Part shown: positions 3,370 to 55,741 of the stretch, in pieces
Layout: every line of letters starts with the position of its first letter
How positions within the stretch are numbered: the stretch's first letter is position 1
NCBI GenBank assembly: GCA_030599585.1
Contig: JAUVNS010000019.1
Location: 16,404 to 80,403, forward strand
Length of the DNA stretch: 64,000 bases
Origin: Promethearchaeota archaeon
Lineage (GTDB): Archaea > Asgardarchaeota > Lokiarchaeia > Sigyniarchaeales > SOKP01
Direction of reading: 5' to 3'
Made by a program: the position numbers and the translations under genes
The notes under the pieces: generated by a model
Told to the model about the DNA's origin: nothing
Seen by the model: the letters and a program-made list of their open reading frames with translations, nothing else
Databases searched by the model: none

Positions 3370-3383
3370 TTAAGCAAAATAAG

Positions 3384-9294: not shown

Positions 9295-9318
9295 AAATAT
9301 AAAAAAGAAATTAAGAAA

Positions 9319-9345: not shown

Positions 9346-9541
9346 TAGTTTTAGATAGATTGACTCCAAAGGATTATGAATCTGGACCTTGTTTTATCAA
9401 AAAATTCATTATTAACTAACTAAACTTCAATTTAATCAAAAATACCTCTGTTTTTAATACACTTAAAAATATTATAAGAATTATACAAAAATTTAAATTT
9501 AATTAAAAATAAAACTAAAATTAAAAAGAGTGTGAAGGAGC

Positions 9542-9832
9542 ATGACCCAATATCGTTTTCGGTTGACAGGTGTTCCACCCGACCAAGCTATCAAACTTAT
9601 AGAAGTAGATCCAAACCAATCTATTGCAGAAATTAAGAAAACAGTTCAGCGGGAATACAAACTTAACCCAATATTAGCTATCCAGTTTATCTTTAAAGGA
9701 AAAGTACTTCCTGACCAGTTAAAATTCGCTAAAATAGGAATTCATCCTAAAAAGGATGTAATTACCGTAATGGCGACCCAGGCGGGAGGAAATCGGCGCT
9801 ACGCCGCGGTTAACCTATTTCCAATCATTTAA
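9542..9832 (+). CDS. Ubiquitin-like protein (beta-grasp) with di-Gly followed by a 13-aa extension
   Basis: Ubiquitin pattern SIAEIKKTV...IQFIFKGKVLPD...IGI...ITVM, then ATQAGG|NRRYAAVNLFPII. A GGAG SD-like motif at 9537-9540. Confidence 0.85.
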   Translation: MTQYRFRLTGVPPDQAIKLIEVDPNQSIAEIKKTVQREYKLNPILAIQFIFKGKVLPDQLKFAKIGIHPKKDVITVMATQAGGNRRYAAVNLFPII

Positions 9833-10602
9833 TTAACCCATTTTTTTTTCAATTTAGCTCTTTTAACCATTTTTCTATAATTAAATTTATCTTGTTCAAA
9901 ATCGTAACCATGGTATTCCAACACAATTTCAACATCAAACTCATCATAATCATAACCGAATTCTTCGATAAAAGCAACACCATTATGAACGCACATCAAA
10001 GCATTCCCTAGATCATGCGAATAAATACCACAAAAATCAGATACGGGCACTTTCCTAAGCGCGAACATTTGCGCTTCGATTAAGCCCGTAAGTCCGTCCT
10101 TATCGAGATCAAATGGGCTGAAATTAAATTCTTCACGCGTTCTTTTTGGAAACATCTCATATTTTTTAGACCTCCAACCGCCCAATGAGGTTCCTGATGC
10201 TCCGTAATAAAAGACAGCGGGGAAAAATAAGCTGTCGGGCGTCATTACAAACAATAACGTGTGGAACAATTGCTCATCTCCTCCAAACTCTAAATCGGGA
10301 AGGAGAGTTTTGAGAGACCCTGCAAGGAGCAGGTCGTGTTTAATATCATTCATAAGTCCACCAATATTTGAAAGTTTATCGCATTTTATCTCGTCAAGAG
10401 CCATGAAACCCTCAAAATCACCAAAGTGAGCTCCAGCTCCGCAAACTTTTCCACTCCATTTCCTAAACAAGGGATCAATGGATATATCGCGAAAATTGAA
10501 GTAGACAAAGCCGTATCCGTTAGATCCTACCTGTGCGTTTTTAACATTACACTGGTCTAACGCTCCATTTGATGTTAGACTTTTTATCTTCTTAATATCC
10601 AT
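9829..10602 (-). CDS. Hypothetical cytoplasmic protein, candidate immunity protein of the giant toxin
   Basis: 257 aa with no signal peptide or TM and an acidic C-terminal patch. Co-oriented and 44 bp downstream of the giant ORF stop. The function is inferred from position only. Confidence 0.55.
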   Translation of the reverse strand: MDIKKIKSLTSNGALDQCNVKNAQVGSNGYGFVYFNFRDISIDPLFRKWSGKVCGAGAHFGDFEGFMALDEIKCDKLSNIGGLMNDIKHDLLLAGSLKTLLPDLEFGGDEQLFHTLLFVMTPDSLFFPAVFYYGASGTSLGGWRSKKYEMFPKRTREEFNFSPFDLDKDGLTGLIEAQMFALRKVPVSDFCGIYSHDLGNALMCVHNGVAFIEEFGYDYDEFDVEIVLEYHGYDFEQDKFNYRKMVKRAKLKKKWVN

Positions 10603-10646
10603 CGTTATAATAATAAAAAGAAAAATATTTAAAGTTATGCTTAAGT

Positions 10647-12332
10647 TTAATCGATATTAAAGAAGCTACCTTTGAATTGAGTCAATCTTAATTGCGAGAG
10701 AGGAAATTTCAATATTAATTTTGCTTGTTCGTAAATGTTCTTAAGTTTAACAAGTGATTCATCTCTCAAATCCAAATCATTTCTTTGTAAACAGTCATCA
10801 ACTAAATTGTATAAGTCTTCAATTTTAGATCTTATCTTTTCTTGAACTTTAAGCGTGATCAGAAATTCGTCTAGAAGCATAATCTTTATATTTTTTGCGA
10901 ATGCTGGATTCCTTTGATTGAGATCCTTAGTCAACTGGTCAATGTCAGATTTAGTAAAGGATGGGTGAGTCAAAACAATAAATAAGAAACGATCTTTTGA
11001 CTGATATTCCTTATAATACTTCTTAGTAATGTAATAATCTTTTAATTTGGGCCGTTTTGCCTCATGTGTAAAATCTACTACTAACTCCCTTATCCCATTG
11101 GGTATTATTCTACTAAGAGTTCCGATGACAGTTAAGAATGTCGCTGAAACAGGTATTGAAAGGTCAACTTGTTTGCCTAACCTTCCTACAGGTTGTTCGC
11201 TTTCGACCCCTATTGTAAAACTATGCGATTTGAGACTCATCATTATCAAAAGTTCGATTGGTAAGTGAGTATATGTACCCACAATATTAGGTAAATAACC
11301 TTTAAGGCTTCGCGAATGTAACTTAAATGCTTTATGGGTTACATCTCGCAGATGGGAGTTTTTTGGTTGAGATAAGATATATGATCGTATTTTTTTATAA
11401 GGATTTCGGTTTTCCCTTAACATATTTCCATACGCTAAAAAGTGACCAGGGTTTAACATCTCCGTTTCAATTGTATCTATTAACTCATTGAAAGAAATAG
11501 ATCTTCCTTTGTTCTCAGATTCAAGAAAATATAACCCCCTATAGAGATCGTATTTACTTTCGACATAGACCTTAGAAGTTTCTTTATCATATTTGTTTAT
11601 ATATGGTTTACCAAATGGATTTAAAAACACAAACTCTTTAATGAATTGAGAAACCGTAGATTTTAATTTTTTCAATTGGTCTGAAGAAATCTTAATTCCT
11701 ATAGAATCAAAACGAGCTTCTGTTAATTTGTACGTGTTATAATCTATTTCAAGTAATTGAGTAAAATCAATTCTTTTATCAATTCGTCTTTTACCTAAAA
11801 ATAAACTTGCAGTATCCTTCGTAAATATCAACTTGGCTAATCTTGTGTATGAGAAAGGTACTCCCCAAAATTTAGGGAATATATCAATAAGACTCTCAAT
11901 TAACACTACCCTAGGTTTTATAGGAGTTCTTAAGTTTTCAAAAGCTTGCCCTTTAATAAATTGCATGAAATTACCATAATCTCTGAAAAATTTGGTAGTT
12001 TCATCATCTCTAGTACCATGAACGTCTTCATAAGCTTCGAGAAACTTATCCAAAAACCATTCATATGAGTGACCATCTTTGGTTGATAGAATATTGATTT
12101 TAGTTGCTCCTTTTTGAATCCAATATTCACCTTTATGATTTTTTGCCCAGATTGCGTAGTATTCGTCAAACTTTTCTTTGAGATATTGGAGGTCTTTTGA
12201 AAAGTCAAATTTCTTATCGAACCGGAACATTTCTCTCTTTAAAATCTTGTATAAATGATGAGTCATTTGAGCTATTGAATAATAAAGATTGTCAATTTTT
12301 CTATTTTCTCCCTTATTAATATCAAAAGTCAT
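10647..12332 (-). other. C-terminal basic effector region of the giant protein (aa 13990-14550), with a nuclease-like domain in the last ~210 aa
   Basis: Lys/Arg-rich, unlike the acidic body. Motifs GTYTHLPIE ... ESEQPV ... QVDL ... VVDFT resemble a restriction-endonuclease (PD-(D/E)XK) core. Confidence 0.55.
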
Positions 12333-15300
12333 TCCAATAGTTATTCCACCAAAGCTTATTCCGAGGTTTCCAAAAACACCAAATCCGCTCAGAGCAGGAA
12401 TCAATGTTTGTAGAGCCATCCATCCCAAAGACGCCACGCCTATCCCAAGAGCAACCAAAACTTGTTTTTTGTTGTTTCGCACATAATCAGCAACTTTGCT
12501 TTTGCTTATCGCGATTTTAACAGGATTGAATACCTTGCTAAAAACACTTTTAATCGAAATATCTTCCGTGAGACAGTAAGTTGCAATCGTTGTGAATGCT
12601 AGTGCGCCAAAAGGTCCGAGCAGGAACGAGGCGGTAAATCCCGTAGCCAACGAAACAAAACTAAGAACTTTGTTTGCTCCTCTAAGTAATGTCATTTGTT
12701 CTGCGTTCTGTTCTTGCTGAGACGCGATTTCGGTCTTATATTCGCTTATTTCGGTTAAAAATTGTTGCATCGTCGGTCTCAATCCTTTCGAGGCGTATTT
12801 CGAGTCGAGCCTTTCAGACAACGACTTTGGTTGAGCCTGTTGAGAACTAAACATGCTCGAAAGCGGTCCGCTGATCGCCTCTCTACCGCTCTCTGCGATG
12901 GAACTAAGAACTATCTGCAAGATAGCGTCTCCTCCTGCGCGTCGCACTAATCCCGAGACCGTGCTTTCGATCCAAGGGTCGATAACGAGTTCTTGTCCTA
13001 TTTCTTTTACTACGGCGCCAATTACGCCAGCAAAACTAAAACTTTTAGCGGCGTCTGAAAACGTTCCCAATAAATTCTTTAACACATTGCTCGAAACCTG
13101 TTTGATGCCTTCTTCACCAACAAAAGAATTTATGATGGTTCCCATACCGGCAGTAAAAACAATAGAAAGCGCAGTAGAAATCGCGGTAACTATCGCCGTA
13201 TAAACTAGTTCGTGGAATCCAAATTGCGTCTGAGTCGCAAGATTAAATTGGTAATTATATTCGAGGATGGCAGCTTCGATGGCTTGAGCGGTTGCGATTT
13301 TGCTTAATTGTTCTGATGTAAGATCCCGAACGTCCGAAACTGAGCGGTATTTTTCTACTTTTATCTCGAAAAGTATTTTTGGTTGAGAATAGGACACGCT
13401 TCCAAAATCTTGGTCTAACTCGTCTGTCTTTGAAATATAAGAATTTAGTATCATAGAAAGCGCAGGATCCGAATCGATGGTAATGATTCCCGCGCTTAAA
13501 TCGACTTTAAATTGGTCGGGAAGGAAAGTGTTAACGTGAGAACTTTTGGTTGATTTTATAGGTTCTGTTTGAGCCCAGACCACGTAAACTTCGATAGACG
13601 CGATATCTGTTTCGAGCGAAGATTCTTCGTCAAATAGCTGGATTTCGATGGAAACCGTCTCTTCCGGATCGTCGATTGCAATTACCTTGTAAATAGAGCC
13701 GTACTGATCTACTGCCGAAGAGTCTTCCGATACGAAGACGGGATACTCGGTGTAAAATTCTGGGGCTGGGATTCCGCCCATTGAATCGATAAAGCTATAC
13801 CTTGGGGAAAACCTATCGTGTTCGGTATCGTAATCAATGGTTGGGATGATAGTATCGAGGTAATTATCTCTATTATCTCCTGTTTCTTCTTGGACTTGGT
13901 TTTTTATGTAATACGCTGAACTTTTTGCGTGGTTAAACTCGGGAATTCCGATGTTATCGAAAACAGGGTTAATTACTCCAGTTGACTGGAGAAAACCGAT
14001 AACCAGAGAGTCGTCAAAATCGGAATATCCTGCCAAATTTCGCGTAGATAACCAATAATCTAATTTGGGAAGCGAGTAGGAAGTTGTAAGCGAGGAAGCT
14101 TTTTCTTCTTCAAAATTAAATTCTCGAACTATAATCTCGGCGTTATATGAGTGTTTATCGGTCTGTCCGTACACGGGGGCATATACTCCACCAAAAGAAC
14201 CAAAAATAGTAATCGGCATAATATTACCGTACATGTCGTCAAACCAGAACTTCTCTCCTAAAGTTGTATCTCCCGCAGAACTGTCTAAGCGGAAGGTACG
14301 GTGGGCGATATAGTTTTCTTGCTCCATAATTTTAACTATTTGGAAAGGAATGGAGACGGCGAGATATCCTAACATATAACCTAATGGCGAACCAGAAACG
14401 ACTCCTGCCACCATTCCCGCCGTTGTTGCCAGAAATTGTTGGAATATGTCTAACACTAAAGTGCCTAAGTCGGTTTGCTCTTCGAATTGATTAGTCGCCA
14501 TTTCTGCTGCGAGTTCTATTAAATCGCTGCTCTCGGTAAAGACCATCTTGCCTACGTCAAAAAGCACGTCGCTGAAGGTTGGCTCGTTAAAGACTCCTAT
14601 TTCTTTGTCGGATTCTCTGAAATGAATGTAATTATCCGTAAATGAATCGCCAAGGTAATTTTCGCTCCATACAATGTCTTTTTCGACCGGTAAAGTTTTA
14701 CCTGGATGGAACTTAGAATCTAAATCGTAATCAAAACCTATGCCAACGACGTTATCGTATTTGTCCATAACAATCACCGTTTCGTAGATTGAATCGTCAG
14801 AAGTATCTAAATAAAGGTAATAGCCCTCCTGATCCCGGTTCGAAAGCGAAGAGGATTTAAGATCGTTGAGCCAGTAGGTGCCTTCATTAGGCGTAGATTT
14901 AATCGCATCAACCGAGTAAGAATCAAATCCTTGACCGTTGTAAGAGTAAGTTCCAGGAATTGAGATCGATTGAGTAGAAGTAAGTAAATTTTCCGTAATG
15001 ATTTCGCCACTTTCGATTGTGGTGAGCTTGTCGAATTCAGCGGGAACATTGTCGGAAGAGTGGCTTAACTCAAAAACAGCGCTTAGATCGGTAGTTTGCG
15101 AGGTAATCGAACTACTAATTGCTGGAATTAAATAATTTTCCACGTTTGAAACTTCGGAAAGCTCGTTAGGGAAGGCGTCTTCGTACACTCTGGTACTGAC
15201 CACCTCACCTGCTTCTAAATCGCTAAACGTTATAGTCTGAGACATCTTTGAACTAGTAAAAGAGGAAACTCTAAGTTCTTCTGAAAAAGTTGCCTTTTGT

Positions 15301-18300
15301 TGGAGTTCTATTTCAGGTTTAATTTCGGTAATTTCTTTGGTATAAGTTGTAATTTCAATATTATTGTAAATAACTTCGTAGCTCGTTTCTTCGTCCATAA
15401 ATCCGTCGAGATCGGTGTCTTTTTGGACCGAATAATAATTTTTCTCTTCTATTGCGTTGGTGATCGTGGTACGGAGCATAATTCTTTTAGCGACTCCTAT
15501 GTTCGCTTGTTCGAGCTCAAACCATTCGGTACTCATGGACTCGAAATCTTTGTCTACTTGGGCCTGAACGGGGTCTGCTTCGTATACAATAGTGTAGTAG
15601 CTGATTTCTCCCGCAGGATCGACGCTACCGTACTTGAACACGTTGAATTCTCCGTCCCCCGTGATGTCAAGTTTTTCTAGGACAGATTCATGTGTGCCGT
15701 CCTCGTCAAAATCGGTCATTAAAAGCACGTTTTTTAGGTCGTTTTTTGCTTCAAAATTTTCGAAATCTATCGATTGATAATTTACATCTAAGGTAAAAAT
15801 ATCTTGCTCGTTTTGCACAAAATTGACGTTTCTGGTGTATTCCAAATGTTCAAATAAAGAATCTTCGGAACCAACTTCGTAATCTTCCATGAGTAAAAAG
15901 TAATCTAAATCGGTATATTCGAAGTCTACGTAGATACTGTCGTTCTTGGTCCATGCAGGGGTATCAGGATGGTTAAACGCGTTGTCTAACAATTTGAATT
16001 GAGAGTAATCGGATAATACTCCCGAAGTGAAGCTCAGTAGTACGACAATCCTATCAAAATCTGACAACTCAACTCCCGTCTCAGATTCGATGTAGATCGA
16101 TTCTTCTCCTGACACTACGTAACAATTTAGAAGGTTGAATTCGTATTCCGACTCGTTGAAATAAAAGCCGGTTATTGAATAAATAGCCAAGTCTTGAGCT
16201 GGAGTGTAGTCTTGCGAAAGTTCAAACTCCCCTGAGATGGCATTGGTGTCGTATGGGTAAACATTTTCGATTGCGATGTGTCTCGTCTCGAACTCGCTGA
16301 GCGATTGATTGTAAAGCACAGAATCAAAATCTTCTGTTGCTTCGTCGTACCACTCAAAAGTAATTCCTAAAACCGAAGTATTCACATTAGGTTGATCGAT
16401 TAAGCGCCATTCTTCCCACGCGTTATCGTCTGCCCAAGAGAGATATAAATACCTAAATTTTTCAATGTGAGGGTTATAATCTTCTCGCAACCCTTCTAAC
16501 TCTAATTCAGTAGTCTGCTCGTCGTAATACCACGCGTTGTAATGCTCGCTATACATGTTATTCCAATAGATGTCGTACACTCCTTGGGAAACGGTTTCGC
16601 CGAACAAATGATCGTCAAAGTAATAGTAATTACCCGCGGTGTCAAAAGCGTCGAAATAGAAAGTTTCGTTTACTCCGCTATCATCGTAGTAAAGAGGTGG
16701 GTTGCTTCCGGAGTCAAATATGACGTGTTCAGAATATATATCTTCGTAGTCTCCGTAGTAAAACTTTTCCATGTTGTTATTTGGATACACTTCAAATATA
16801 TCTGAATCATAAAGAGTAGCGTTTTCGTCAAATTCAAACATAAAGAAAGAATCTACAATAATTTGATACCGAGGATCGTTTGAAGAAATAACAATATCTG
16901 TAATATAACAATGATCTATCCCTTCGCTATCAATAACTTTAAACGTGGAAGAAATGTCTTCAAAGCTTACGTTAAACACTTTTTGTCGATAAGTGTCCAA
17001 AAATTCGTTTTCGAACGGAGTTAGGTCTAACTGGCTTTCCCAAGCGACCATTTTTTCCCTGTTCTCAAACAAATCGAGCTCAACTGAATATTCTTCTCCG
17101 TCGGTATTAATGCCTAGCAAACTCACTTCGGCGAACGGGACGTAATCGGGCTCTCCCGGCTCTCCCTTTCTGAAATTTTCGATATAAGGAGATTTCTGAA
17201 GGATCATCTCGCCTACCGCCAAACTAATGGTTTTAGGAAGAGTCGAATTGTATTTGAGGAACAAAATATCGTTGTCGTACATCTCTATCGCATTTTCTAG
17301 ACCGTCTAAGTAAGATGTTGGTAGCGAAATATTATGAACTGAAATATCGTACGCGTTTTGCACGCCGTTGTAATCAAAACTATCTATTCTGTTACCGATT
17401 TCCGAAATGCTATAAACGTATTCAAATTCGCCGTTAAGCACTAACACTTCCTCACCCGTGTCAAACATGAGGCGCTCTAAATCAATAGGTAAATAGCCCT
17501 CTATAGTGTCGCTTTCAATCCATTGAATCGTTTGCAAGTACGGATAGCCTTCTTCGTAATAATAAGCGTAAAAGTCGGTTTCGGTCAAAAATTCAGGCGT
17601 AAATACTATACTTGCGTTATTCGTTGTAGTAAATTGATCCCAACTACTTGATTCAGGTAAAGTAATATAGACCGATCCTGTCTCTGATTCTATCATATCG
17701 AGAGTTATTTCGGTTTCTCCAATTTTGGTAGAAGCGCCGTAATAAAATTCTGCTTTTATGCTAGAGATTACTTCGGGGTTCATAATTCCTAACCGCATGA
17801 TTAACGTATCGAAACTATCCCAACCGTCTGGATCGCTCAATTCTTCCGATAAGTAGTAAGTTAGCGCGTTAGTCTCGTTTAAAATCGCCATTACTTCTTG
17901 GACCATGCCTTTGCCAACTGGAGATTCAGAATCGTAATCAAACACGAAATAATCCGACTCAAAATTGGGGGCGAGGTTATTTTCTGGATCTTGAGCTACT
18001 TCCCAATTTAATAAGGTATAAGCTTCATTAGTTAAGTCGATCTCTAAATTGTGATAATATTGGTATTTATTGTGGAAATCTGCGCCAATCTCAACGTAAA
18101 CCACGTCTCCTTCGCCAATTGCTCCTGTTTGTGTAGGTTTATCAAAATAGTAGTTAGACACCCCTTCCCCATCTTTTAAGTCTATAGAAAGCCTCTTCAT
18201 TCCTGAATCGTAAGTCATATCTTGCTCCTTGAAATAATCTTTATCTCCGGTTATGTTGTAGAAATAGGCAAATATGATTGGAGTGGAATCGTAATCCAAC

Positions 18301-21300
18301 AGTGGCTGATTGTAGTCTATGTATAACTCAGCGACGTCGTTGTAAATATTATGACCGTCTAAAGCGAAGTCTAACGTTATGGTATTTTTCTCTACTAACC
18401 TGTAATTAAGCGCCATCTGATATTGATAGTTAGCCGATAAATTGTAATATAATGGAGACATTATAGACGAGCCGCTAAATGGGTAGTAATCGTTGTAAAA
18501 TTGCATTTCCCATGGCTGAACTTCGATAAACATGTGTTTAGTTTCTAAAAGCCCGCCTCGAGTTTTTGCCCAGTATTCGACCGTAAATTTCTCTCCTATG
18601 ACTAACTCTAATTTCATATTTTCTGTAAAGGTAATGTTGTTTCCTTCTACAGACAATATTTTTTCAATCAAGTCAATTTCTATTCCTAATTCGTCCTTGA
18701 CCACGAAACTGTAGCCGTCTCCGAACAAAATATCGTCTTGGGAAGCAGTGTAACTCAAACTTTCTCTTGGATAATAGTAGGTTAGTAATATTTCGGAGTC
18801 TTCTAAGATATCGATCTCTCTGAAATCGTACTTGCTAAGCGCGAAAGTATAAACCGGATATTCGGACAGGTCATGTTGCCAGCCGTAAATATATTTTGCG
18901 TCTATGTATCTTTCGCCGGAAGAAGTTTGTACTACCATTCCAAACGGTTGAATATTGTCATATCTTTCTTGGAATTCTCCTCCGTAAGTTAAGTTGACTT
19001 CACCGTAGAACAACTCTCCACCGTAATCTGTGAAGTCCGTGAAGGTAAATTCGGTAAAATTATATTCGGTTGGATAAAATTGGAATTCGTCAACAACAAA
19101 AGATTTGAAGTCTTCTACTGGGGCGTATTCAGAAATTTGGTAGAAAGACGCGTTAAAAGTATCGGTGGTTGTTAAGTCAGGATGGTAAGCGAAATTTGAC
19201 CATTCAACCGCTTCTGAAACCGGGAATTGCCAATGAAGTTCGGAATTATAAGTGTTTTGGTCTTCTGCTATTGCGTAATCAGAAGATGTAAACTCGTGAA
19301 CGCTGTGGAAATCTATTTGAATCTCGTCGCTTCCTAATATACTCACGATCTCGCTCACTTGTCTGAAGAAGTGAACTTGAGTTTGACCTTCTTCAGTAAG
19401 AACTATTTCGTAATCAACGCTTGGAGTTAATTTCACAAAACTGGTAGGATACGAAAGAGCGTTATCTGGATTGTAGCCAAGATAATCGTCTTCTGTTAAG
19501 GCAAATCCTTGCCACGACTCTACCCAATCCCAAGGTCGAGCTATTCTATCGATATTAGAAATTTCGATATTATCTATTTTTTCTGTTGAATCCGGAATTG
19601 AAATTGCAAATTCCACTCCTGAAGGTAAATCAGTAGTGATAATGTTTTGAGGTTCGGTAATGTCAATTCTGTGGTGTAAATATAATTCTCCCTCAACAAA
19701 TATTCCATCGCTAGTAAGCGGGAGTTCGGAAAGGACAAAGTTCTCGTTAAAAATATCTTCGTCAAAACTCTCTATATCAACTACATAATCTTGTTCCCAA
19801 TTAATATTGAATTCTAAGTCGCTAACATATTCGTCTCCGTAGGTGTTAGTTCCTTTACCCGCGTATAAATTCACTTCTCCTTCGATATATTCTGGAAGTT
19901 CTAAATCGTAGGCGTTTAAGTGGAATCCGAGCGAATCTACCAACCTTCTATCGTTTTCTTCTAAACATTGGAAGTAAAATTGGTCGTCTTCTTGGGTTTC
20001 GAAGGCTAAATCGTTGTTTTCGTCTCTATAAAGCTCTACTAAGTCGCCGTATCCGTTAAATCCTTCTACTGCTATGGTGAACCACGCGTTGTCCACTACA
20101 TCGTAGGCGTCCGTAAGGCGATCTGTGTAAATTTGAGCGTAATTTTGCGTATTGATGATAGTTGACACTTTTAAATTTCCTTCGGAATCGACTCGAGGTT
20201 TGGAGACTGTTTCTAATATCCTATCGTCTGCTGTAAGGTTGAAACTGCTAATAATTACGTAAGGAACTATGTTTGGCTTGTCTCCGTAGCTTAGGAAGTC
20301 TATCTGAATATCGAATGTAGTATATCCAATTGTTGCGTATATGGGTTGGAGCGAAATTTCGAAGTCAATTTCGTTTTCTCCTGAGGTTGGAATTATGTCA
20401 ACATAATCAAAATAGGATTCTCCATCTTCGGTGGTTATGGTAAATGTCGCTAGTATAGGTTTTAAGTTAGCAGCGTTCTCTAAGGCACAATCGTCCAAGT
20501 AAAAGGTTCCGCTAAGAGTTGTGTCGTATAATAGCGAAAGATATTCAAACGAGACGGTGGTTTTATTATCTCTCAAAAATGGCACGATTATTATTGGAGA
20601 ATTTGATTCCATTGGATTTTCAGGTTCATCTGGAACTTCGATTAAATCGATTGGTGTAGGACCAGATTCGTAATCGTAAATTTCATTAGAGGAATGAAGC
20701 TCAGAAAGTTTCCTAACGGCGTCGTACACGTTCATGTCAATTCTCTGATAACCTCTATCTAACTTATAGGTAGAAACGCCATAAGAGAGATAAATATCTT
20801 TATCACTTAAAGTAGCAAATTCAACTTGAATTTGACTTCCAAGATCATTAAGAATGTAGGTATCTGATAAATCGGTCCCATCTAGGTCGTCAATAGAAAA
20901 AATTTTAATATTAGCAGGAATAATATTTGGATACCCCTTATACAAAGTGGTTTTTCCGTTTACATTTATGTTATAAGTTTCGTTAAATATTGAATAAAAT
21001 ACTCCTAAATTATCAATGTGATCGCACGTTATTGGGTTAAAAATTAATTGTGAATTGCTAAATCCTTCTTGTTCTGAGAAAGTAAACGACAATACTTCGC
21101 TAGGATCTATTTGTATTGCGTAGGATATAATTAAATCTGAATGATTGTCTAAATCGGCTATAGGACCTTCGTTTAAAGTCATTTTTCCCGAAGTATCAAA
21201 GTTGTATTGTAATGAAGAAATAATTTCTTCGCGATAATTTATCATGCCTCTGACTTCTACTACCTCTATGCTTAAGTCTTCGTAGCCTCGTAAATTGAGC

Positions 21301-24300
21301 AATGCATCGTCGCTTTCTACACCGTAGGTTTCAATGTCGTCAGTAAATTCGAAATATCTTTCAACTCCATAGGGTATTGATGTATCGCCGATGTAAAAAT
21401 CTTCGTTGGTATCTAAATCCGAATAAGTCTGATAAATAATCATGTCTGTTCTAATATCAGAAGATACTATCGACATGTTAAGTATGTGCAATTGTTGCTC
21501 CCTGTTATCTTCAATCATTCCCGTTTGGTTGTAAGAGGCGTCAACTGTGACGTTTAATTGAACTTCTTTTCCCATAAGCATTGCTCCGTCTTGTCCTAAC
21601 GGATACTCGAAATAATACAGCCCGTCGTATACCAAAGAGCTTATCCAAACGTCTTCGTCCCCCAGTTCAAACCACTCTAAATCGTTCCAAGCGGTTTGGG
21701 AACCGATATCGCGCGCTCTGGCAGATATTTTGAAGTTCACGTAATCGTTTAATCCTATCTGACTGTGAAGGGTAGCTAAATAACCGGTTAATCGAGGATA
21801 GATGTCTTCGTAAAATCCGTAGTCCTCGCCGAAGCTAGCGCCTCCCCAGCCCGAATCGTACCAATTCAATAAGTCCAAAGTCATCGTAGGCTCTCCAAAC
21901 TTCATCCAATTTTCCGGTCTGACTTCTAAAGTACAGAATCGATACACTTCTTTGGTATAAGAGCTTGCTGGCATGTGAATGTTAACTTGATACACTCCTG
22001 GATCGAGTTGAGTTAAGTAATAATCGGTCAATCCGGTGGCGTCATCGATAGTAACTTGACCGTTTTGGTCGACATACGCGATAAATTGAGGCGATCCTTC
22101 GGCAAAAGGGCTATTTCCACTGTAATCGGTAATTGTAACTACTACAGGCGATCCATCGTATAAATAATTGTGACTCGAGCCAAGTTCTGGAATTAAGTTT
22201 TCTTGGTCAAATTGATTAGCCATTTCCTCTTCAGTCATTATGTTGGCGTCTGGAATTAAATCTGCCTCAGCAATTTCGATGTCAAACGCAAAAATATCTT
22301 CTTCCTCGGACTCCATCTGATAGACCAGTAAATCTGGCACTCCAAGTAGAAGATCTTCGGCGTGAACTGTAATTAATCCTTCCCCATAACTTCCGCGATA
22401 GAACTGCGTAGCGCTAAAATCGTAATCGTCAAGTTCGGAAACTCTGCTTAAGTCAAACACGTTATCGTTGTTGCTACCATATACTTCTGATTTATCGACA
22501 AATGCCATATCTCCGGCGTTAAACACGGGAGCGTGAATCACTCTCACATATAAACGATAATCTTCTAACGAATCTCGAGTAATCGAACCGCTACTGAACA
22601 TAGATTCGTCGAACACGCGAGCGAAATCAGCTATTAAATCTTGATTAAAGGACACGTTGAACGATACTACTCCAAATTCGTTTGTTATTTGGTAATCCCA
22701 AATATAACTGGAATAGAAACCGTATTCTCCCGAATCGGGATCTTTGTATTCCCACAGCTCAGGGCGAGTAAGCATCCGAGAAGTGCCTGCTTGCATTACT
22801 CCCGGACCAAAACACGTTTCAGAACCCTCGTCTGAGAAAAAGGCGTTTCCTAACGCTTCAGAATCTATATATTCTCCGCTTTCGGTTTCCCAGTCGATCG
22901 TTTTAAAGTTTAATCCCGCTTTAGGTTTAATTCCAACTTCCAACCACACGAGGTTGTTGGCTATTGCTTTTCCTTCGACGTCTTGGAGCCTAAACTTAAA
23001 GTCGTAGGAGTCTGTTATTGTTTTTTGGTAATTTAAAGCGGTATACGGTTCGCCTTCGTGTAAAGTTTCGTAAAGATTTGTGGTAGTATAATATTGTCTC
23101 GATGGAATAATCACTCCATTGTCAACGCTGGTGGTGTATTCGGTAGGAACGTATTCTATTGAGCTCGTTTTACCTAACACTGTAATAGTAAACAGTTCGT
23201 AAATGTCTTGCGTTGTGTTGTAAACGCTGTTATAACTCGAATACTCAACTTCTAAGTGCTCGTTGTTGTAATTCGTCAAATTATTAGGTAAGTAACCAAG
23301 TCGAGCAATTATTACCTCTCCTAAGGGTAATTGTAAACCTCCCTCGCCTAAGAAGAAACTTTCGTCGAAATCGCCTAAGATTCCAAGTGGTATTTTTTTA
23401 ATTGGTTTCCAAATACCGTCTTCGTCTAAAAATTCCAATATTAAATGACTCGCTAAATTAACTTCTTCGGTCAAATATCCTTCGTATTCGATGTAATATG
23501 AAAATTGTTCGCTAATAGAATAATATTGATCTATCGAAGTGTTAAAAGCGTAAAAAATTACTTTATTTCGATTAGTTCCGATCAAGTCGTAATCTGTTCC
23601 TTCAACCATCTGAACTTTAATCTCGTGCTCTCCAAACCTAACAAACACGCTCGAATCGAAACTATCTATTGAGTAATGATTTAATTTAAGCACCGGAATA
23701 AATGTATATTCGAAAATTACATCGACCGATCCTGTACCGGTGTAAGTGAAATTAAGAGCGTCAATTCCCGCCATGTTTACGATTTCGTAATGGAAGTTCG
23801 CCGGGTCCAAAATCTCGTACGCGCTTCCCGTGTCTTTCCACACTTTTACTAAGTCAATAATTCCTGATCCGATGGACGAATTATCTAATATGTAGTTAGG
23901 CGATACATCTGAAATTTGACCTGCGATCAAAGAACTATTTTCTGTTTGAATGTTTAATAAGTTAATCGGCTCTTTAAACGTTGAACGATCTACCCATTCA
24001 AATGTCCCGTAATCAAAGACTCGGAAATCGACTGGAGTTAAAGCGTCTTCTGCGTCTACGAAGGATACGGGAGTGATTTTCTTTCCCTGCATAACTCGGT
24101 AAGTTAGTAATAATTCAGTATCGTAGGCTATAAGGTGATCGTAATCAGAAGTCCAATTAACTATTAGCATAAATTTATTGGGGTGATCAATCATGTGATA
24201 AGCGTAGTAACTTATCCAACACCCTTCTATTACGTTCGTAGCGTAATTAAATTCTTGTCCGTCTACAATCTCGAAAAGGTTCGTTATTTTGTTTTTGTTT

Positions 24301-42300: not shown

Positions 42301-45300
42301 CAAGAAACATCAGCGTCCAGGTAATACATGTCAATGACAGGTTTATAATCTACTCTGGCTTGGTCTAAAGTCATACTATGTGCGGAAGATTGAACTGATG
42401 TGTATACTCTCATCAATACTTTATTAGTGCCGTCTTGGTAATACTCGTCGTAAGTCGCTAGGCTTTGCGAAAAGCTGTTACCCATACCATGCCATCCTGG
42501 AGCGTCCCAATCGTATATTTCTGCCGTCCCACCGTTTCCTGCGTAATAAACCCAATCCATCGAGTATACGTTACTCGGGATCATGCTAAACTCGGCATAG
42601 ATTCTGTGATTCGGAGTTCCTCGGGTAAGAACGGTTTCTACCGAGTCCACACTGACAGTATAAGCGCTACCTGTAAGTTTAAACCAGGCAACGTAAACTC
42701 GAAGGTCGTTTACTTGGCTTTGGGTTAACGATAATCCTGACCACGTGAAATACGATGTCCAAGTCCAAGAATCGCCCACAATTGCGGTTTTAGCTGACGA
42801 GTACACACCCGTACCTATTCTCCACCTTACTGAAACTCCACAAAATGCTGGAGTTGATTCTTTTATTCGTGCTCTGATCTTAACGTCAGTTACTTCAGTA
42901 CCTGCGACCCAAGAAGGGTTTTGGATGCCAACTTCGCAATTTGTATTTTGTCCGGATAAGTAATCGCTTCCCGTACCGGTATCGTCAATTTTCTCGTGAG
43001 CAGAACCGCTAGATGGATATAACGTCCAAGTATTTGAATAAGTATAATCTGGACGGAGGGTTGGATAATTTGCAACGTTAGTGAAATATTTCCCAGAATT
43101 TATCGTAGTTTCGTCCGCATCGTCACCTAAAAGATCTCCGTAAGGAGTAGCTAAACTGCCGTAGGTGAAAGAGAAATCTCCAAGTTGAGCAGGTACTTTT
43201 GCTAATTGGGAACCGCCAGATGGTACGAGCTCGGAAGAAATTGTGGAATTGGTGTCCCCTGATGAAGTTAAATTTCCATAAGGAGCCGAATAATCGCCTA
43301 AAATCACGCTAAAATCGCTCGGTTGACTGGGGGTTAAATGATCGTTATAAGATACGAATTCCGAAGAAAGATCGCCGTTACTAAATGAGGAACTAGTAAA
43401 GGCGGAATTGTAATTTAAGTTCCAGTTTGTCCAATCCTCAGATAAAGTTTCAGTAGGGAGTGATGTGGTCATGGATAAAGGATTCATAAAGAACGAGTCG
43501 TTATATCCATCTGGAAAGTAAAGATGACGCATATAAGAACTCTGAAAAGAACTAAGAGAGTCAGCCCACAAAAGCTCGTAATAAGGTTCGTGCTTTTCGT
43601 AGTTGTAATCAAAATCAAACCCTTCTGAGGTAAATTGAGTAGCTGAACTGTCTATTTTTTCTAAATTTCCACTCCAGTCTGAGCTTCCTTGTTCAAGAGT
43701 GAAGTCTTGAGGTTGAGATGGAATAACTGTAATGCTATTAAGCGTTAATGAATGGTCTCCAACTTTTCCTTGGGTCCAGCTTTCAATTCCTATTAAGCTA
43801 CCATCATTGTTCCCTGTTGCGTCGTAAATTACGAGTCCATTTCCTTCGTCAAATTTCCACCAAGTACGCTCGGTGTTCTCCCCTACATTATAGTAATTTT
43901 TATCGATTTGGAGGTCGTTAATGTAAATGTTAGTATCTAATCCTAACGAGACCGTAAATGGAATTAACAGTTCTATAGATTGGGATTTTAGATCGGAAGC
44001 CTTGATCTTTAAAATTTGCGTATCTACCGTTTGGTCTTCGAAATCAAAATCTATTGGATCGAAGGTAATTAAATGTTGAAAGTATAGCCCTTCCGCTTCA
44101 GGGTCAATTTTCTCAAAAGTATACACTTTATTCCCAACTGTCAAGTTTAAAACTTTTAAATCTTGAGCTATTGGGTAAATTTTAAAATAAAAAGGTTCAA
44201 ATATATCGTAAATACGATCAAAAGCGTAATTCTCTACGTACAGGTCACTGAAATAATTCTGGTCGTTGACAAAAGAGAATAGCAATTCGTTTCCATCGTT
44301 TCCAGAGGTATCGTATCCTACTATTTTAAAATCTACGTCTCCATCGGGCATGTATTTAACGTTCCATTGAAGAGTATCATTTGCGCCATAAACCGTGAGA
44401 TCGTCTCTCCAACCTTTTCCGTAGTTATAGGACAGTCGATAAGATTTGAAATCGTTATTAGAAGAACTTATTGTGCCGTTTACAAGCCCGTCGAACTCAG
44501 AGGTCGCTGTCCAAGAACCACTCGCTTGCTGAATTTGATATAAAACATCGTTTGGATTGGTATCCACGGTAATCGATGGGCCGTCAAGGTCGAGTTCTAG
44601 ATCATTTTTCGTAAGGTTAAGGTTATAACTTCCAAATAAAGGATAGGTAACTTTCAATTCTACAACAATGTTAAAAAGAAGCGACTCCTCCCAAGGCAAA
44701 TTAATAAATGGCGCTGAAAAGGGTGAGTAAGTAGCGTTGTTTATTAAAGTCCAATTAGCGTATCCCTGTTCTACCGCCCAAAATTTCGCGTAGTCTATCC
44801 TAGATTCTATTACATCAGAAATTACCAGCGAGATTTCGTCTTTTTTACTTACTGTATTGCTAACTTTTATAGCGTTTTTAAAAGGACTAACAATCGTTTT
44901 GTTTTCGTAGGTATCAAAAGAACTAAAAGCTCCGTTATACGCCTCCGATATTGCGTACCACGTACCGTTTGGAACCGATTCGCTCGAAATATAGTAAGCA
45001 AAATCTCCGCTAGAATCTGATAATTCTACCATTTGAGTCCAATTATCTTTGTTTTGAGTGGTAGGAACGTCGTTGTACATATAATAAATTACCTTAGTAA
45101 GCGAAACTCCGTTGTTGTTGGTGGTAGTAAACTTAATATCGCTGTTGACTTCTTGACTGTCGGAGATCGGCTCCCAATCGTTAATTCCTATCGAAAATGC
45201 TTTGCAAGTGATATTTGGAGGGTTATTAATTACGGTAAGATTGGAAACAGTAAGACTTCCTTGCGATCCCTTGTTGTTTTGGAACACTGCTTTCAGTTCG

Positions 45301-48300
45301 TATATAGTATCGTCGACTAAATTTGTGGTGTTCCAAGTAAAATTGAAGTAAGCAAAATTATTTTCGAAACTATATTGCGAAACGTTGGCAACCAAATCCC
45401 ACCCTGAATAATTACCCATATTTTTGTAATTGTAATACAAAGCAGCCCATTCGAAATCGTTCCCGATCGCTTTAACTTCCACGGGATATAACCCAGAAAC
45501 TACCGTAAAAGATTCTACGTTAACAAATTCGGGCAATATATCCCCTTGAACGAATTCAAACTTTACGCTATCTATGATCACCCCCCATCGACTCCTAAAT
45601 TCTTTCTCCGATGTGATATAAAAAGCGTCTTTCAACTGTGCTGTGAGTTCCAGGAATAAATAATCGGTGTCAGTAACTATGTCGTCCCCGTAAATGTATA
45701 TTTTAATAGGATCTTTGGTATAGTAATATTTTTGACCTAAATCGTTTGTTACGTTGCTAAAATCGTTAAAATCAAATTCTTGTATTTTAATAGAAGCGTT
45801 TGAATATTCAGAAAGAATTTTTGAGCTGAATTGATTGAATATTTCTAATTTAAACTTTAATAATTCTGATTTAAACTCGTCGGTAGCTTTATCTCGATCC
45901 GTTCCGTTTTGATACTCAAAAAATGGGTGAACGGTTATAATAGATCTTAAATAATAATCTAAGGTATCTTCAGACTCTAAATTAGGCGTTACTATTCCAA
46001 CCCGACCGGTAGAATCTGGACCGTCGATTAAGAGTTCGTCTTGATACGAATCGTAATAACCAAAACAATCGGTTAGATGAGTGTTTATAAGATTGAGGTA
46101 GTTCGCAGGACAAGTATTTTCAACTGTTTTAATTAAAACTGGTAAGTAGTTGTAGTTGTTCCCTTCTTGAGACGCCGGATAATAAGCATCGCTTGTGGAC
46201 GAAAAAGCGATAAAATCGTCTCGATTATCTATTTCAATGTCGAAGTCGCTGAGTAAGTTCAAATCTGCTCCTTTGCTTACCTTTTCAAAAAAGCCGTAAG
46301 GGTTAGATTCCTTAGTAAGCAAATACAACTGATTGTTTGCAGACCCGTTTCTCCAATCAATCGACAACTTTAGACTGTTGAAAATAAGATTGACGCCGTT
46401 TTGAATGTTATACGAGTTCAAGTCGTATGTTTTTACCTTTACGTTTAACACTAAATAAACTACTTGCTCGTTGCTTTCGTATAAATCTTTAAGAAGAGCA
46501 AAAAGAGCCTGCTTTTCAGTTTGTGTAAGTTGGAAATATTCTTCTTTGTTGTGAATTTCAACTGAGAAGTTCTCTAAGTTAAGCGTATAATATAAGTTTC
46601 CAAAATTTTTAGACCATTTAGAGTTGAGATTAATGTCTTGGAGAGAATACCCGGTCCAAGAATTGTATCTAATTTCGTTAGAGATAACTACGTCGGGATT
46701 GTCGTCGCTTTCGACCATAACCATTAATTCACATTCTAAGTTAGAATATGGAAGCGAGGACATGTGTTCGAATTGGTCGAAAAATAAACTAATGGCGTCA
46801 AAATCGATTAGTAAGTCAATTGAATTATCGTTAGATTGTTCTAGATATGGATCCACGAAAGCTGTAACATTTTCTAAATTCAATTTGTTAGAAATCAAAA
46901 ATTCGCTTTGAGCGTAAGTGCTTGACTCGTGTGACTTAGTTAACACGCCAAACGACTCCGAAGAGAAATTAGTTGGATTAAGTTTGAAAGAAAGGTATAC
47001 GTTATCTAAACCGACTTGATATTGGTCGAGGTCGGCAGTCTTGTTTAAACTCCAATCGTCTTTTACTAAGTTAAACCTTAAATTGAAGTGTTCCGTGAAG
47101 TTAATAGGGTAGGGGAATTGTACTTCGAAAGGGTAGATGTGATTTTGAACTTTGGTATCAGTTGCGTTAATTTCTGAAAACGATAAGGAAGTTTGCGATA
47201 GGTTGTAAAAATACCTTAAGTATTCGGGGTAATAGGTAGCGAGGTTATTCTCGACCCAATTATCCAAAGTTTGAGCGTTCCAATCTGTATCTAAAATTAC
47301 GCACTGAGTACCTGCAAATTCTAAGGAAACGATATATCGCAACCTATCTTCTGACTCGAGCAGGTCGTTATCAAACACGCTTAAGTCTAAATCGAAGTAT
47401 ACGCTCATATTAGCTGAAAATGCACTATCGGTAAAAAGGATGGGCATGAAGTCAGCAGAAAGCGTGCTAAAAGAGTTGAGATCGGCTCTCGCGCACGAAG
47501 TATATTCTACTGTCCAAGAGTTCGAGTTATTGGTTGAAAAGGTCCAAAACACTCCGTTTGACCAAAACGCGTCTGGATTTTGCTCTTCGGTACTTTCTTC
47601 GCTTTTCACGTAAAAGGGTCCGGTGAACTCTTGAGTCTCTAAATCGAAATACATATACTGAATTTTCCACTTGCTACTTTCCCCAGTTTTTCTGGAATTC
47701 ACTTCGTAGGCTATAAAAAGAGTGTCATTAAACCCTAAATTGACAATGGGGTTAAGCATTTTATAAAAATCGTAATCTCCAAAATTGATTGAGTCAGAAA
47801 TAGTTTCTACTATATTAAACTGACCGCTACTACTATTATACTGAGTGTGTTTAAAAATTAAGTCGCTATACGAGCTATTAACTTGACTGGAGTATACTAC
47901 GCTGATTAAGTCGTCGTTATTATATACGATGTCTGCTTGTCTGGAAATCGACTCGTCTTCTAGACCTCCTGAGACAAAAATATCTTCTTGAAACTGAAAG
48001 TTATCGTTGGAGACATCTAAATAAATTTGACGATCAGTAGCGTTAGTAAATCTTTCGAATATATACGCAATTTCGTTTTTTACGATTGAAACGTCAATTA
48101 TTAAGCTATTAGGAAGAATATAATCTTCGAGCGAGTACTTAACGTAAAAATAATTTTCTGAAGGAAGTTCGGAGGAAAACGATATGTTAAGATTATCGTT
48201 TCCGTAAGCACCTATTAAAGACCAGTTGTTCCTACTCAACCGAGTTGCGAAGCGTTCAATTTCGTAGGAGGGAAGTGGTGAGGTCGAGTAGTAAATATCC

Positions 48301-51300
48301 TTGACTTTTTTAATAAGAGTTACGTTATCGGCAATAAATGATTTAAGCCCGTAGTTGTCAATCCCGCTATAAAAAATGTTAATTCCAAAGTTAAATTGTC
48401 TTGAATCGTACACGTCTTGAAATTGAAGGTCATCGGATAACACGATTTGATCTTGATCAAATAATATGCTTTGGTCTCCGAATAATTTTACAAATTCCAA
48501 TTCTGAATTAAACAAAACTTTTGTTTGGCTCAAGTGATCTTCAATCGATATAGAATTTATCTGAAACACTCTCTCGCTTGAGGTCTGGTTGTAACTTACG
48601 AAAATAGTAGTTGAGTCTTCCAACAAAAGCGAAGTGTTGTAACAGATTCTAGTATTTATTTGAGGAGATTCAAGATCCCCGTTGTAGTTTATTGCGTTGT
48701 TTGACCCTGGAATAGTCCAAGAATAATTTAATTTTAGCATGTCTAATTGAAAGTCGAAATAAGAGGAATTTTCACCGCTTAATTTTGCTTTTACTTCAAA
48801 ATTTGCGTTATAATAATCAGAACTCGTAATTGAATACAATCCATCAAAGAACGAAGTGTGGACCGAAGAATTTACGAGATCGTATTGTTGGGAGTTGTAG
48901 TTGTATAACGAAATATTAATAGTTTGGCTGATGTTTGTTCTATAACAATACAACAACTCCGCGGAAGCTAAATCGTATTGAACGGGTTTATTTCCCATTT
49001 CCAAATCGGAAATAAAAGATAAATTGTTAAGAGTCGAGCTTGGGGAAGGCCGTTCTGATTCGAACTTTATTTTCAAATTGGTTATGTTAGTTTGAGACGC
49101 GGAGAGTCCAGACCAAGTGTAGGTTTTCCATTCAGGCGTTGCTCCCATGTTTAAAGGTTTTATTCCGAGCCAACTACCGCAAAACACGTTTATAGTTGAT
49201 TCAATCGAAGATTCGTTCCCATATACCTTTATAACAATTTGATCCACAGTCCCGCCTTGCACATCAAGATAACTCATGTCAAATTCGTCTGTGATATTTC
49301 CAGAACCGGTGCTTATTGTATAAATGAAATCGCTCGAAATAGTGGGCGCAGTAGGATCCTCTACTACATCGTTAATAAGTTCGAAATGATCGGTCCCAGT
49401 TGTTACTTCCCAATCATTTACAACATCGGAGTCTGGTCTTACAATACCGTTGTCTTGAACAGTACCACCACTGGCAGAATGCGAAAAAGAAGTTTCGTTA
49501 GTAATTATATAATGGGCAAATCCTGCCGTGTGTCCAACTTCAGTATCTTGATAACGATCTTCTTGGAAGTACGGTTCAATCTGAGTAGAGGTGAATGGAG
49601 AATCTTCCCAATTAGCCCAAGCACCATTGTTTCCGTCCATGCGGACGTATTTCGCTACGCCCCAAGTAGGAGTCTCTCCAAAGTTATGGTCTTCAAGGTT
49701 GTTGTGAGATTGTTCTTCGATCGTGTCTGCTGTTATTCCTGATTTAATGTGGAGTCCGTTTATCGAAAAATCGCCTTGTTCAATTACTATATAACTAATC
49801 GTCTCTCCAGGATGATTGTCTTGCGGAGTGCATTCAGCAGAAGTCATTGAAGTGTAAAACGCCGAAGTAGAGGGATGAGTGGTTCGGGAACCGCCATTTG
49901 TCCAAGATTCGATCCACTTACTTCCGGTTGCTGACGCGTTTTCAGTAGTTACAGTCGTGAGAAAATTGGCGGTTGTAGAACCCCAGAAAGTAGTATTTAA
50001 GGTAACTTGGTCGCCTGCCGAACCATAAGTATTTGGTACGACGGTTTCGGTATAGTGGTTACCTGCCTCAATCTTAGGCCAACCTGCTTCTTCCCATTCT
50101 CCCGCTTCAACTACCACTAAATATATATTGCCATGACAAGTCGCATTAGAACCGTATATATAATCCGGAACGCCAACTTTTGTCTGACAGCTCGTAGAAG
50201 TAACCGAACGGATTTTAACACCTACCGCAGTATCAGCAGAATTAAATCCTGAAGAAATTTCAAGGTTCGCAATAACAACGGGTTCTACATAGGTATTTTG
50301 AAATGATACATCTACCCAAGTAGTCTGATTTACTCCAGTAACTTTAATGGTTTCGATTTGGAATCCATTTCCACTTCCTTCTGAATATTCGTAAGAAACA
50401 TCACCGTATGCTGCGTATATTCTACTCCCTATCGCTTCAGTTTCATCGTAATCAGGAGTGAACGTTGAATAATCGTTGTCTCTATCGACAATCGAGCCTA
50501 ACCAGTCAGAAATTCCGCTTAGCATCTCAAAATCTGAAGGTTGAGCTGGAACATCCTGCGACGAACCCGTACCACCACTACCACCAGCAATTACATCGTT
50601 TATGGCAATGGGCGTTGAAAAGGAAGTATCTGAGTAAGAAGAACTTAATTGGGTATAATACAAGTTTTTAATAGTGTCGTTAACATCCTCGTTAATTCTA
50701 CTGCCTTGGGTAGGATTAGTCCAAGTAACCTCTTCGAAAGCGACGTGAACTATACATTCTTGGTGAATTAACTCTAAATTTTGATCGTATATATTACCGA
50801 GAGGGGTTAAAGTAATTTCTGGAACCATCATAGCGGTTTCGTCTAAATTTCCCAGTTCGTAATTAGTTACATTTATCACATCTTGTACGGTAAAATCTTC
50901 CAAGCTGACTCTTCCGTAGACTATTGACCATTCAGATTCGCCGTTTGAGTGAATGTCTTGATTTCTTTGTTGCCAAGTCACATATAGATCGGTAGAACTT
51001 AACGCAATAGCGGGCGAAAGTTGGTATATATCGTCTTCGCCTAGATCAAATAATCGAACGGGCGTTGACCAATCTCCTTCAGGTCTGTAAGCGTAAGTGA
51101 GGTAAATTTTCCACATACTTTCAGTGGCGTATCGAGCAGCAAAAACTATAATAACAAGTTCGTCGTTGGATACTATTTTTGGAACAACATATCTCTGCCG
51201 TATGTCCTCTAAACTACCGTCTGAATCTCCTACGCTCGTAAATTCGTCCTTAATAACGCTCTGGAAAGTGTTAGATATGTTAATAGGGGGGTTAAGGCTT

Positions 51301-55735: not shown

Positions 55736-55741
55736 TATCAA

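Follow-up and report, generated by a model that had tools for sequence, protein, structure and literature searches.

Bacterial polymorphic toxins commonly use nucleases of the restriction-endonuclease (REase) fold as toxins, include leucine-rich repeat (LRR) proteins among their immunity proteins, and have been described with N-terminal polytopic membrane domains (PMC3482391); the PrsW-type carries an N-terminal domain of 8 transmembrane (TM) helices, sometimes an RHS stalk, and C-terminal REase-fold toxins (PMC3482391). Polymorphic toxin systems count as essentially bacterial; in archaea they are reported to be uncommon and seemingly of bacterial origin, the classical archaeal case being the RHS polymorphic toxins of Methanosarcina acetivorans (PMC3482391). 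The locus described here was found in 64,000 nucleotides of contig JAUVNS010000019.1 (positions 16,404 to 80,403 of the forward strand; assembly GCA_030599585.1) from a Promethearchaeota archaeon, a stretch referred to below as the window. It consists of one giant open reading frame (ORF), whose 14,550-aa product is called the giant, and a 257-aa partner gene, P0001, immediately downstream. Their best-supported reading, held with middling confidence, is that of an Asgard-archaeal polymorphic effector/partner system.

The giant resembled PrsW-type toxins in its constant N-terminal membrane domain, long stalk, recombining C-termini, downstream partner and stand-alone cassettes. It differed from them in an anchor without a Pfam match and with zero histidines in aa 141-425, so that the PrsW motifs (EExxK/R, FxxxE, HxxxD/N) were absent; in the lack of RHS/YD repeats, HINT, ZU5 or any other releasing peptidase; and in a stalk of about 12,400 aa without a family match bar one laminin G-type (LamG) domain, with a novel conserved helical core before the tails. 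Some tails of the giant family were LAGLIDADG or GIY-YIG-like, terms not found in the part of the bacterial survey available to us (PMC3482391). The N-termini of the giant (aa 1-1000) and of both its paralogues gave no Pfam match at E ≤ 0.05, and thus no two-partner secretion (TPS), PrsW, LXG/WXG, VgrG/PAAR, SpvB, MuF or PVC peptidase family.

The likeness to CdiA/CdiB/CdiI (type V two-partner secretion) included a filamentous stalk, a proposed translocation region, a C-terminal nuclease that varies, an immunity-like gene next to it and orphan modules of C-terminus and immunity gene, as well as a bipartite tail in which a common helical domain precedes a variable catalytic domain. Unlike in CdiA, Pfam and regular expressions revealed neither a TPS domain nor FHA repeats, a CdiB partner or a VENN at the junction, and the tether of the giant is a polytopic anchor within the protein itself. 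Archaeal cells are bounded by one membrane only. Rhs/YD-repeat toxins shared with the giant family large stalked proteins, variable C-terminal toxins, downstream cassettes and occurrence in archaea, but the giant lacked YD repeats, the PxxxxDPxGL autoproteolysis motif (regular expression) and RHS Pfam matches, and its family was Asgard-restricted among the sampled genomes, with no sign of bacterial origin. Halomucin, RTX adhesins and other Asgard giants, e.g. the aloposon pair Otus/Ephialtes (PMC8813620), were similar in extreme length and acidic extracellular body; however, giants of the Otus/Ephialtes type measure 3,000-6,000 aa, are tied to mobile elements, and variable nuclease tails have not been described for them.

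An earlier interpretation of this DNA (the sequence-only reading) had placed the giant well above halomucin (about 9,200 aa) in length. It is indeed longer, but not unique: the same genome encoded two paralogues with an identical order of parts (13,906 aa on contig C23 and 13,858 aa on C24), and the core-bearing open frames of relatives, many of them of 11,000-14,500 aa, reached 20,619 aa (core at G248:C13:141921-142409). The same reading had called the layout a toxin-immunity arrangement like that of contact-dependent inhibition (CDI); the general gene logic of polymorphic toxins was borne out, but the hallmarks of CdiA were absent and the analogy is not specific to CDI. The giant system operates in the manner of polymorphic toxins yet lacks the membership features of CDI, Rhs and PrsW, and no description of the family, its core module, its cassettes or its glycosylation-site-free effector zone was found in the literature searched.

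Three hallmarks of polymorphic toxins were observed: variable C-termini with a sharp junction, a co-varying downstream gene, and orphan cassettes. An exhaustive HMMER search returned 134 homologues, most of which aligned only to the region ahead of the giant's C-terminal tip (the pre-tip) and continued with 450-1,000 unrelated residues; 69 such tails were grouped into at least 21 clusters. A test set beforehand, whether homologues would have a common pre-tip with unrelated tips and different downstream genes, was answered in the affirmative by these clusters and their co-varying partners. A 1,364-aa orphan frame of the same genome (C23:57899-61990; the C23 orphan) was 68-71% identical to aa 13225-13945 and unrelated thereafter; along the giant, identity to this orphan was 72-90% until approximately aa 13945, 30% over the hydrophobic hairpin H3/H4, and at background beyond. 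In a sister genome, the match of a 617-aa orphan (G020:C31) began at aa 13951, at the breakpoint. The junction of pre-tip and tip recurred in independent assemblies (P0006, P0021, P0035, L050 and L051). Stand-alone cassettes were represented by the C23 orphan, G020:C31, L051 and a same-strand array at G018:C185, the latter formed by a giant, several small ORFs, an orphan ORF with core and tail, and an LRR-like gene belonging to this orphan. At locus L025, a decayed 136-aa tip remnant was located directly upstream of a P0001 orthologue: the toxin-like gene was eroded and the partner retained.

Pfam detected LAGLIDADG domains in three tails (LAGLIDADG_3, E 9e-11) and helix-turn-helix (HTH) families in one, and nothing useful in the tails of the two paralogous giants, the C23 orphan and 10 relatives. 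For the C23 orphan tail, GIY-YIG families were nearest in an Atlas look-up (scores 0.79-0.83) and a GIY...YVG...R...E motif was spotted by eye; its GIY-YIG likeness is a lead only. An HNH-like motif proposed for the C24 giant received no support from Pfam. The homologue P0021 (L027:384-5768, 1,794 aa) was preceded by an AT-rich stretch full of stops, started with about 45 transposase-HTH-like residues (by eye), went on in giant-type sequence and was followed by an LRR gene. It is probably a 3' remnant from a rearrangement; considered as a small full-length form, it was dropped as a guide to topology, its start resembling a fused transposase fragment.

Nearly every carrier of the core had a co-oriented ORF 28-211 nt downstream, whose family tracked that of the tail. 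Three groups of tail and partner co-varied; the tails of L020, L036 and L037 were paired with a 286-aa LRR protein (65% identity), those of L035, L038, L039 and L045 with a protein of about 113-137 aa, and L015 and L032 had a common 149-aa partner (a comparison of partners only). In the window, the small soluble gene reported by the sequence-only reading was confirmed as P0001, encoding 257 aa without a signal peptide. P0001 had 114 homologues, though nothing useful in Pfam and no usable Atlas match. Its orthologues (70-77% identity) followed this tip in G000, G020:C31, L050 and L051, and the remnant in L025; P0001 was directly behind this tip type or its remnant in five of six close loci. P0001 had also been considered a mere syntenic resident on account of seemingly tipless loci (L021, L023, L025 and L026), a view reversed for the close clade by the L025 remnant and the full tips of L050 and L051. 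A small ORF convergent with P0001 (window 9536-9829, + strand) was 79% identical to a gene of L023, a Loki's Castle contig, which had a weak ubiquitin match (PF00240) there. The neighbourhood formed by NadA, LRR, HTH, ubiquitin-like and P0001 genes was conserved across genera, with P0001 inverted there.

The module conserved ahead of the tip comprised the helical hairpin H0, the alpha/beta domain D1, the core and the short helices H2. The core was formed by a 65-aa helix ending in the hydrophobic segment H1 (aa 13698-13720) and an amphipathic helical domain, with invariant residues Q13672, E13766, E13770, D13774 (D-P motif) and E13807 in the alignment (n = 59); speculatively, this invariant cluster of acids might serve for processing or for metal binding. 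Searched with a hidden Markov model (HMM) of the core, 301 genomes sampled from the phylum yielded 30 with carriers, 26 of the 30 within the 68 genomes of the window's family, and the fetched loci yielded 24 carriers, the set used for the glycosylation-site counts below. The hydrophobicity of H0 was kept across homologues, and the model of D1 had no convincing match in the Protein Data Bank (PDB). The Gly/Ala-rich hydrophobic helices of the sequence-only reading were recovered as four Gly/Ala/Ser/Thr-rich stretches (aa 13283-13324, 13698-13720, 13877-13911 and 13946-13993), marginally hydrophobic only (mean Kyte-Doolittle value 0.95-1.7); compared with 2.3-2.9 for the N-terminal anchors, these values fit conditionally inserting helices. 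The pre-tip model had an overall predicted local distance difference test score (pLDDT) of 71.5. A sub-threshold Orbi_VP5 match on the amphipathic region (14.4 bits vs. a cut-off of 27) was discarded as evidence.

At the outer side of the membrane, the archaeal oligosaccharyltransferase AglB glycosylates Asn-X-Ser/Thr (X other than Pro). A STT3/AglB homologue was encoded in the genome, and these sites, or sequons (defined in PMC8342417), were unevenly distributed along the giant: 179 N-x-S/T sites, the last at aa 12788 and zero in the final 1,762 residues, with 175 in the ectodomain (0.9- to 1.3-fold expectation). C-terminal of H1, the 24 carriers (27,715 residues) showed 0 sequons vs. 192.5 expected, a count whose independence is overstated because the carriers are mutually related, although their tails are mutually unrelated in sequence. 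Control motifs in the same residues were near expectation: 169 vs. 192.5 for S/T-x-N, 144 vs. 131 for Q-x-S/T and 182 vs. 224 for D-x-S/T. Sequons in these carriers extended to core position +16, about 40 residues before H1, and never past H1. A second sequon-free zone (core-relative -640 to -165; 0 vs. about 31 expected) covered H0 and the first half of D1, and in one paralogue group conserved sequons returned at -163, -60 and +16. No purge was seen in the giant's own aa 1-140 (3 sequons vs. 1.8 expected), the cytoplasmic N-termini of the giants together (9 vs. 13.8), or the partner genes (33 vs. about 40), P0001 having a normal sequon content. The genome-wide ratio was 1.07, and 4 of 1,801 ORFs, one of them the C23 orphan, were sequon-free with at least 4 expected. 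A purely cytoplasmic domain should be sequon-neutral; from the zero we infer that the C-terminal module is probably exposed outside the cell, under strong selection to stay glycan-free. Such a state would be expected of a module that later inserts into or crosses a membrane and acts as an enzyme.

The tip, i.e. the last ~557 aa, was basic (K+R 16.3%, net charge about +20), and its AlphaFold2 model (41 homologues) had a mean pLDDT of 82, above 90 for aa ~14130-14540. Its helical middle domain was joined to other C-termini in some homologues, where the HMM match stopped after this domain. The top Foldseek rows nearly all had the restriction-endonuclease fold (Nt.BspD6I, Ecl18kI, EcoT38I, FokI, MspJI and the R2 endonuclease domain), with weak E-values (5.6e-3 and above); structural scores to Type IIS/nicking endonucleases (FokI, Nt.BspD6I) and to other PD-(D/E)xK nucleases (Can2, AF1548, the R2 endonuclease domain) were middling only. 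Residues conserved in the tip family were H14345, E14349, E14366, D14379 (19/19), D14409 (20/22), K14427, K14430, Y14432 and Q14433; the third motif was D-F/Y-T and not (D/E)xK, K14427 and K14430 coming later. Pfam gave no match, nor was there a significant one among PDB sequences searched with the tip-family profile. The tip was interpreted as a putative nuclease domain of PD-(D/E)xK type, whose third motif is non-canonical, behind a helical domain. The nuclease fold proposed as an AlphaFold check was recovered, by Foldseek, as a predicted restriction-endonuclease-like fold; of the basic tip with nuclease-like motifs originally claimed, the basic character and the nuclease likeness at fold level stood.

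These data could be accommodated in the following mechanism. The giant would be held in its own membrane by the N-terminal block of about 9 TM helices, exporting an acidic stalk of ~12,400 aa with glycosylation sites and, at its end, a glycan-free module of ~1,760 aa with the DxDxDG motifs, hairpin, D1, helical core with its invariant acids and marginal Gly/Ala-rich helices. Past the recombination breakpoint at about aa 13,945, the cassette would comprise a hydrophobic hairpin, the helical domain and the PD-(D/E)xK endonuclease. Upon contact, the hydrophobic helices would enter the neighbour's membrane and bring the nuclease in, cleavage at the conserved core possibly preceding nuclease entry, and the cytoplasmic partner protein, encoded 44 bp downstream, would protect kin cells. 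Delivery into another cell, DNase toxicity and neutralisation by P0001 are predictions of this mechanism. The stronger proposal, of a native Asgard contact-dependent delivery machine unrelated to bacterial secretion, with a glycosylatable stalk, a self-inserting module, swappable site-specific endonucleases and P0001/LRR immunity, is tentative and somewhat doubtful.

Several observations, besides the relatedness of the carriers, weigh against an effector/partner system. No trafficking, pre-toxin or releasing-peptidase family was found in Pfam scans of the giant; VENN, DPxGL and YD motifs were absent near the tip (regular expressions), the sole VENN being at aa 2349, far from the junction; and none of the parts of the pre-tip model (hairpin, alpha/beta domain, 65-aa helix, amphipathic domain) matched a solved fold. 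Short homologues starting at H2 or with a single TM helix had no signal peptide, and soluble stand-alone proteins of the tip family existed without a co-oriented partner, e.g. P0106. Every assignable tail was of a DNA-acting, site-specific or homing type, a narrower repertoire than that of bacterial toxins. P0001 itself was well conserved (35% mean column identity, many invariant residues); homologues at 41-46% identity occupied the same NadA-LRR-ubiquitin-like neighbourhood, tipless, in distant genomes, and for the L052 orthologue (70%) the 297 nt of available upstream sequence contained no tip. Finally, in a crude positive-inside analysis of 83 homologues, the flank preceding H1 was negative, and the flanks following H1, to either side of H2 and following H4 were positive; at face value, these charges favour a tail placed in the cytoplasm.

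This charge pattern is what the main rival, an unlikely one in our judgement, would predict: a giant anchored at both ends, with H1 as stop-transfer, H2 and H3/H4 as hairpins, and the tail and amphipathic core in the cytoplasm. The ectodomain would then be a sensor of contact or of attaching viruses, with the tail as a membrane-tethered effector, either a nuclease for defence or a regulator; the inhibitor or partner of the tail would be encoded by the downstream gene. The basic tail, the modelling of H2 as two short helices, the basic N-termini or loops of P0006, P0055 and P0093 (without signal peptides), the soluble proteins of the tip family and the origin of tails in DNA-recognising families fit as well. 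The basic charge is, however, equally well explained by DNA binding, the C-terminal helices are only marginally hydrophobic, and the loss of sequons (0 vs. 192.5) is specific to N-x-S/T, although a cytoplasmic domain should match expectation. The cytoplasmic tail, initially favoured on charge, was lowered by the sequon result; the exported tip of the sequence-only reading is supported by the purge and opposed by the positive-inside pattern.

The polymorphism itself could arise from the spread of selfish cassettes of homing-endonuclease type, recombined at the conserved module, with their addiction or partner genes, into the 3' ends of giant genes, and owe nothing to a function of the giant, which we regard as improbable. 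All assignable tails do belong to endonuclease families used by homing elements (REase-like, LAGLIDADG, GIY-YIG), the breakpoints are sharp, orphan and decayed copies occur, and P0021 starts with a transposase-like HTH (by eye); but neither the sequon purge of the tails and the preceding module, nor the hydrophobic hairpin starting each cassette, nor the majority of tails without a recognisable nuclease would be explained, and we know of no homing endonuclease genes residing as in-frame C-terminal fusions. Slightly less probable still is a giant adhesin exposing its nuclease to extracellular DNA, for scavenging or matrix remodelling, with no delivery and with a downstream gene that is unrelated or encodes a chaperone. 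An acidic lectin-bearing ectodomain, the exposure implied by the purge and the nuclease fold suit this explanation, which nevertheless predicts neither 21 or more tail types, nor co-varying cytoplasmic partners, nor orphan arrays; site-specific endonuclease families make poor bulk DNases, and exposed archaeal enzymes are normally glycan-tolerant, so that a total purge is unexpected. An assembly chimera of paralogous fragments, affecting the giant ORF or the tip junction, might be suspected in a 52-contig genome with 8.9% estimated contamination and a 70% identical paralogous pre-tip, but has a near-negligible probability: a stop-free 43.6-kb frame is not expected by chance, the order of parts is repeated in the two other giants of this genome and in many giants of its relatives, and the succession of pre-tip, tip and P0001 recurs in independent assemblies.

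The features of the locus are collected in Table 1. The giant frame was uninterrupted (43.6 kb without one stop in the ORF listing of the window), in agreement with the single 14,550-aa ORF first reported, and other elements of that description were also reproduced: the 9-TM N-terminal anchor, as nine strong hydropathy peaks (aa 144-420, mean Kyte-Doolittle value 2.3-2.9); the acidic ectodomain of about 12,800 aa, as a body of 12,852 aa (approximately aa 426-13,277) with a net charge of -31 to -87 per 500 aa and K+R of 5-6%; and the DxDxDG cluster, as the only two strict matches in the whole giant (aa 12863 and 12961; regular expression). Laminin_G_3 was the sole Pfam domain of the giant in scans of 1000-aa pieces, one of which yielded it at E 1.7e-14, whereas 5000-aa blocks gave no family at E ≤ 0.01; domains may be masked in very long hmmscan queries.

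Table 1. Features of the giant and its partner gene, with residue ranges in the giant and nucleotide positions in the window.
Feature	Residues (aa)	Window position	Strand	Basis
Giant ORF		10647..54299	-	14,550 aa + stop codon; single open frame
N-terminal cytoplasmic segment	1-140	53880..54299	-	Hydrophilic, ahead of TM helix 1
Polytopic anchor, ~9 TM helices	141-425	53025..53879	-	Hydropathy peaks
Acidic sequon-bearing ectodomain	426-12788	15936..53024	-	Charge and sequon counts
Laminin_G_3 / concanavalin-like lectin domain	4431-4578	40566..41009	-	PF13385, E 1.7e-14
Sequon-free C-terminal module	12789-14550	10650..15935	-	Sequon counts
DxDxDG (Ca-binding-type) motifs	12863-12966	15402..15713	-	Regular expression
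H0 helical hairpin	13278-13334	14298..14468	-	AlphaFold2: two helices + turn, pLDDT 82-91
D1 alpha/beta domain	13344-13653	13341..14270	-	pLDDT mostly >90
Conserved core	13640-13815	12855..13382	-	Alignment of 59 sequences + HMM
H2, two short Gly/Ala-rich helices	13876-13911	12567..12674	-	Hydropathy; modelled helix-turn-helix, low pLDDT
Cassette breakpoint + H3/H4 hydrophobic hairpin	13946-13993	12321..12464	-	Identity drop; orphan alignment start
Variable basic tail (tip)	13994-14550	10650..12320	-	Composition, model
Helical middle domain	14104-14291	11427..11990	-	Conserved alignment columns
Predicted restriction-endonuclease-like (PD-(D/E)xK) domain	14339-14540	10680..11285	-	
P0001, 257-aa partner, candidate immunity protein		9829..10602	-	44-bp gap after giant's stop, same strand

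The window is part of contig C47 of a 4.85-Mb genome in 52 contigs, and homologues of the genes around the giant were labelled Promethearchaeota, the Asgard phylum, by NCBI. The GC content of the giant gene was 35-41% vs. 28-31% in the flanks, which encoded WD40-TIR, NUDIX, NadA, LRR and ubiquitin-like proteins. The first gene upstream of the giant, on the same strand (window 54608-55741, - strand), encoded a 377-aa right-handed beta-helix/NosD-like protein, and the next one (56078-57877, - strand) encoded 599 aa without a Pfam match; a functional partnership with the giant is conceivable for either protein. The region at 58000-61800 was AT-rich (GC 26-27%), with short ORFs only. At the other end, an ORF cut by the 5' edge of the window (2-1426, + strand) encoded WD40 repeats and, at the C-terminus, a TIR_2 domain (aa 328-434, E 1.3e-11), as is typical for conflict or signalling proteins, and was followed by a convergent pair (1498-3228, + strand, and 3384-5063, - strand) of about 560-576 aa each with a C-terminal NUDIX domain, the first ~430 aa of both having no Pfam match. 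Elsewhere in the genome, large frames included one of 2,722 aa, hydrophobic throughout with dozens of TM-like segments (C40:190054-198219, - strand), and two repetitive frames of 4,049 and 3,688 aa, cut at contig ends (C1:93879-106025 and C50:2-11065, both - strand), which shared ~30-40% identity and showed no relation to the three giants.

At 43.7 kb, each giant gene fills roughly 1% of the 4.85-Mb genome, in which there are three copies. The sequon purge provides a simple general signature of segments that meet the external glycosylation machinery yet are kept unmodified, and could help to detect the exported effectors of other archaea. A further resource lies in the folds of the tails, the core and the partner proteins, as uncharacterised nucleases and inhibitors. 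If the effector/partner reading is true, the giants would be a native Asgard version of polymorphic toxins, built from parts without a known family, and would be relevant to contact, recognition and conflict between Asgard cells and their neighbours, and through this to models of syntrophy and eukaryogenesis. On the stronger proposal of a native delivery machine, they could serve kin discrimination, or manipulation of partner cells at the level of DNA, in the lineage closest to eukaryotes.

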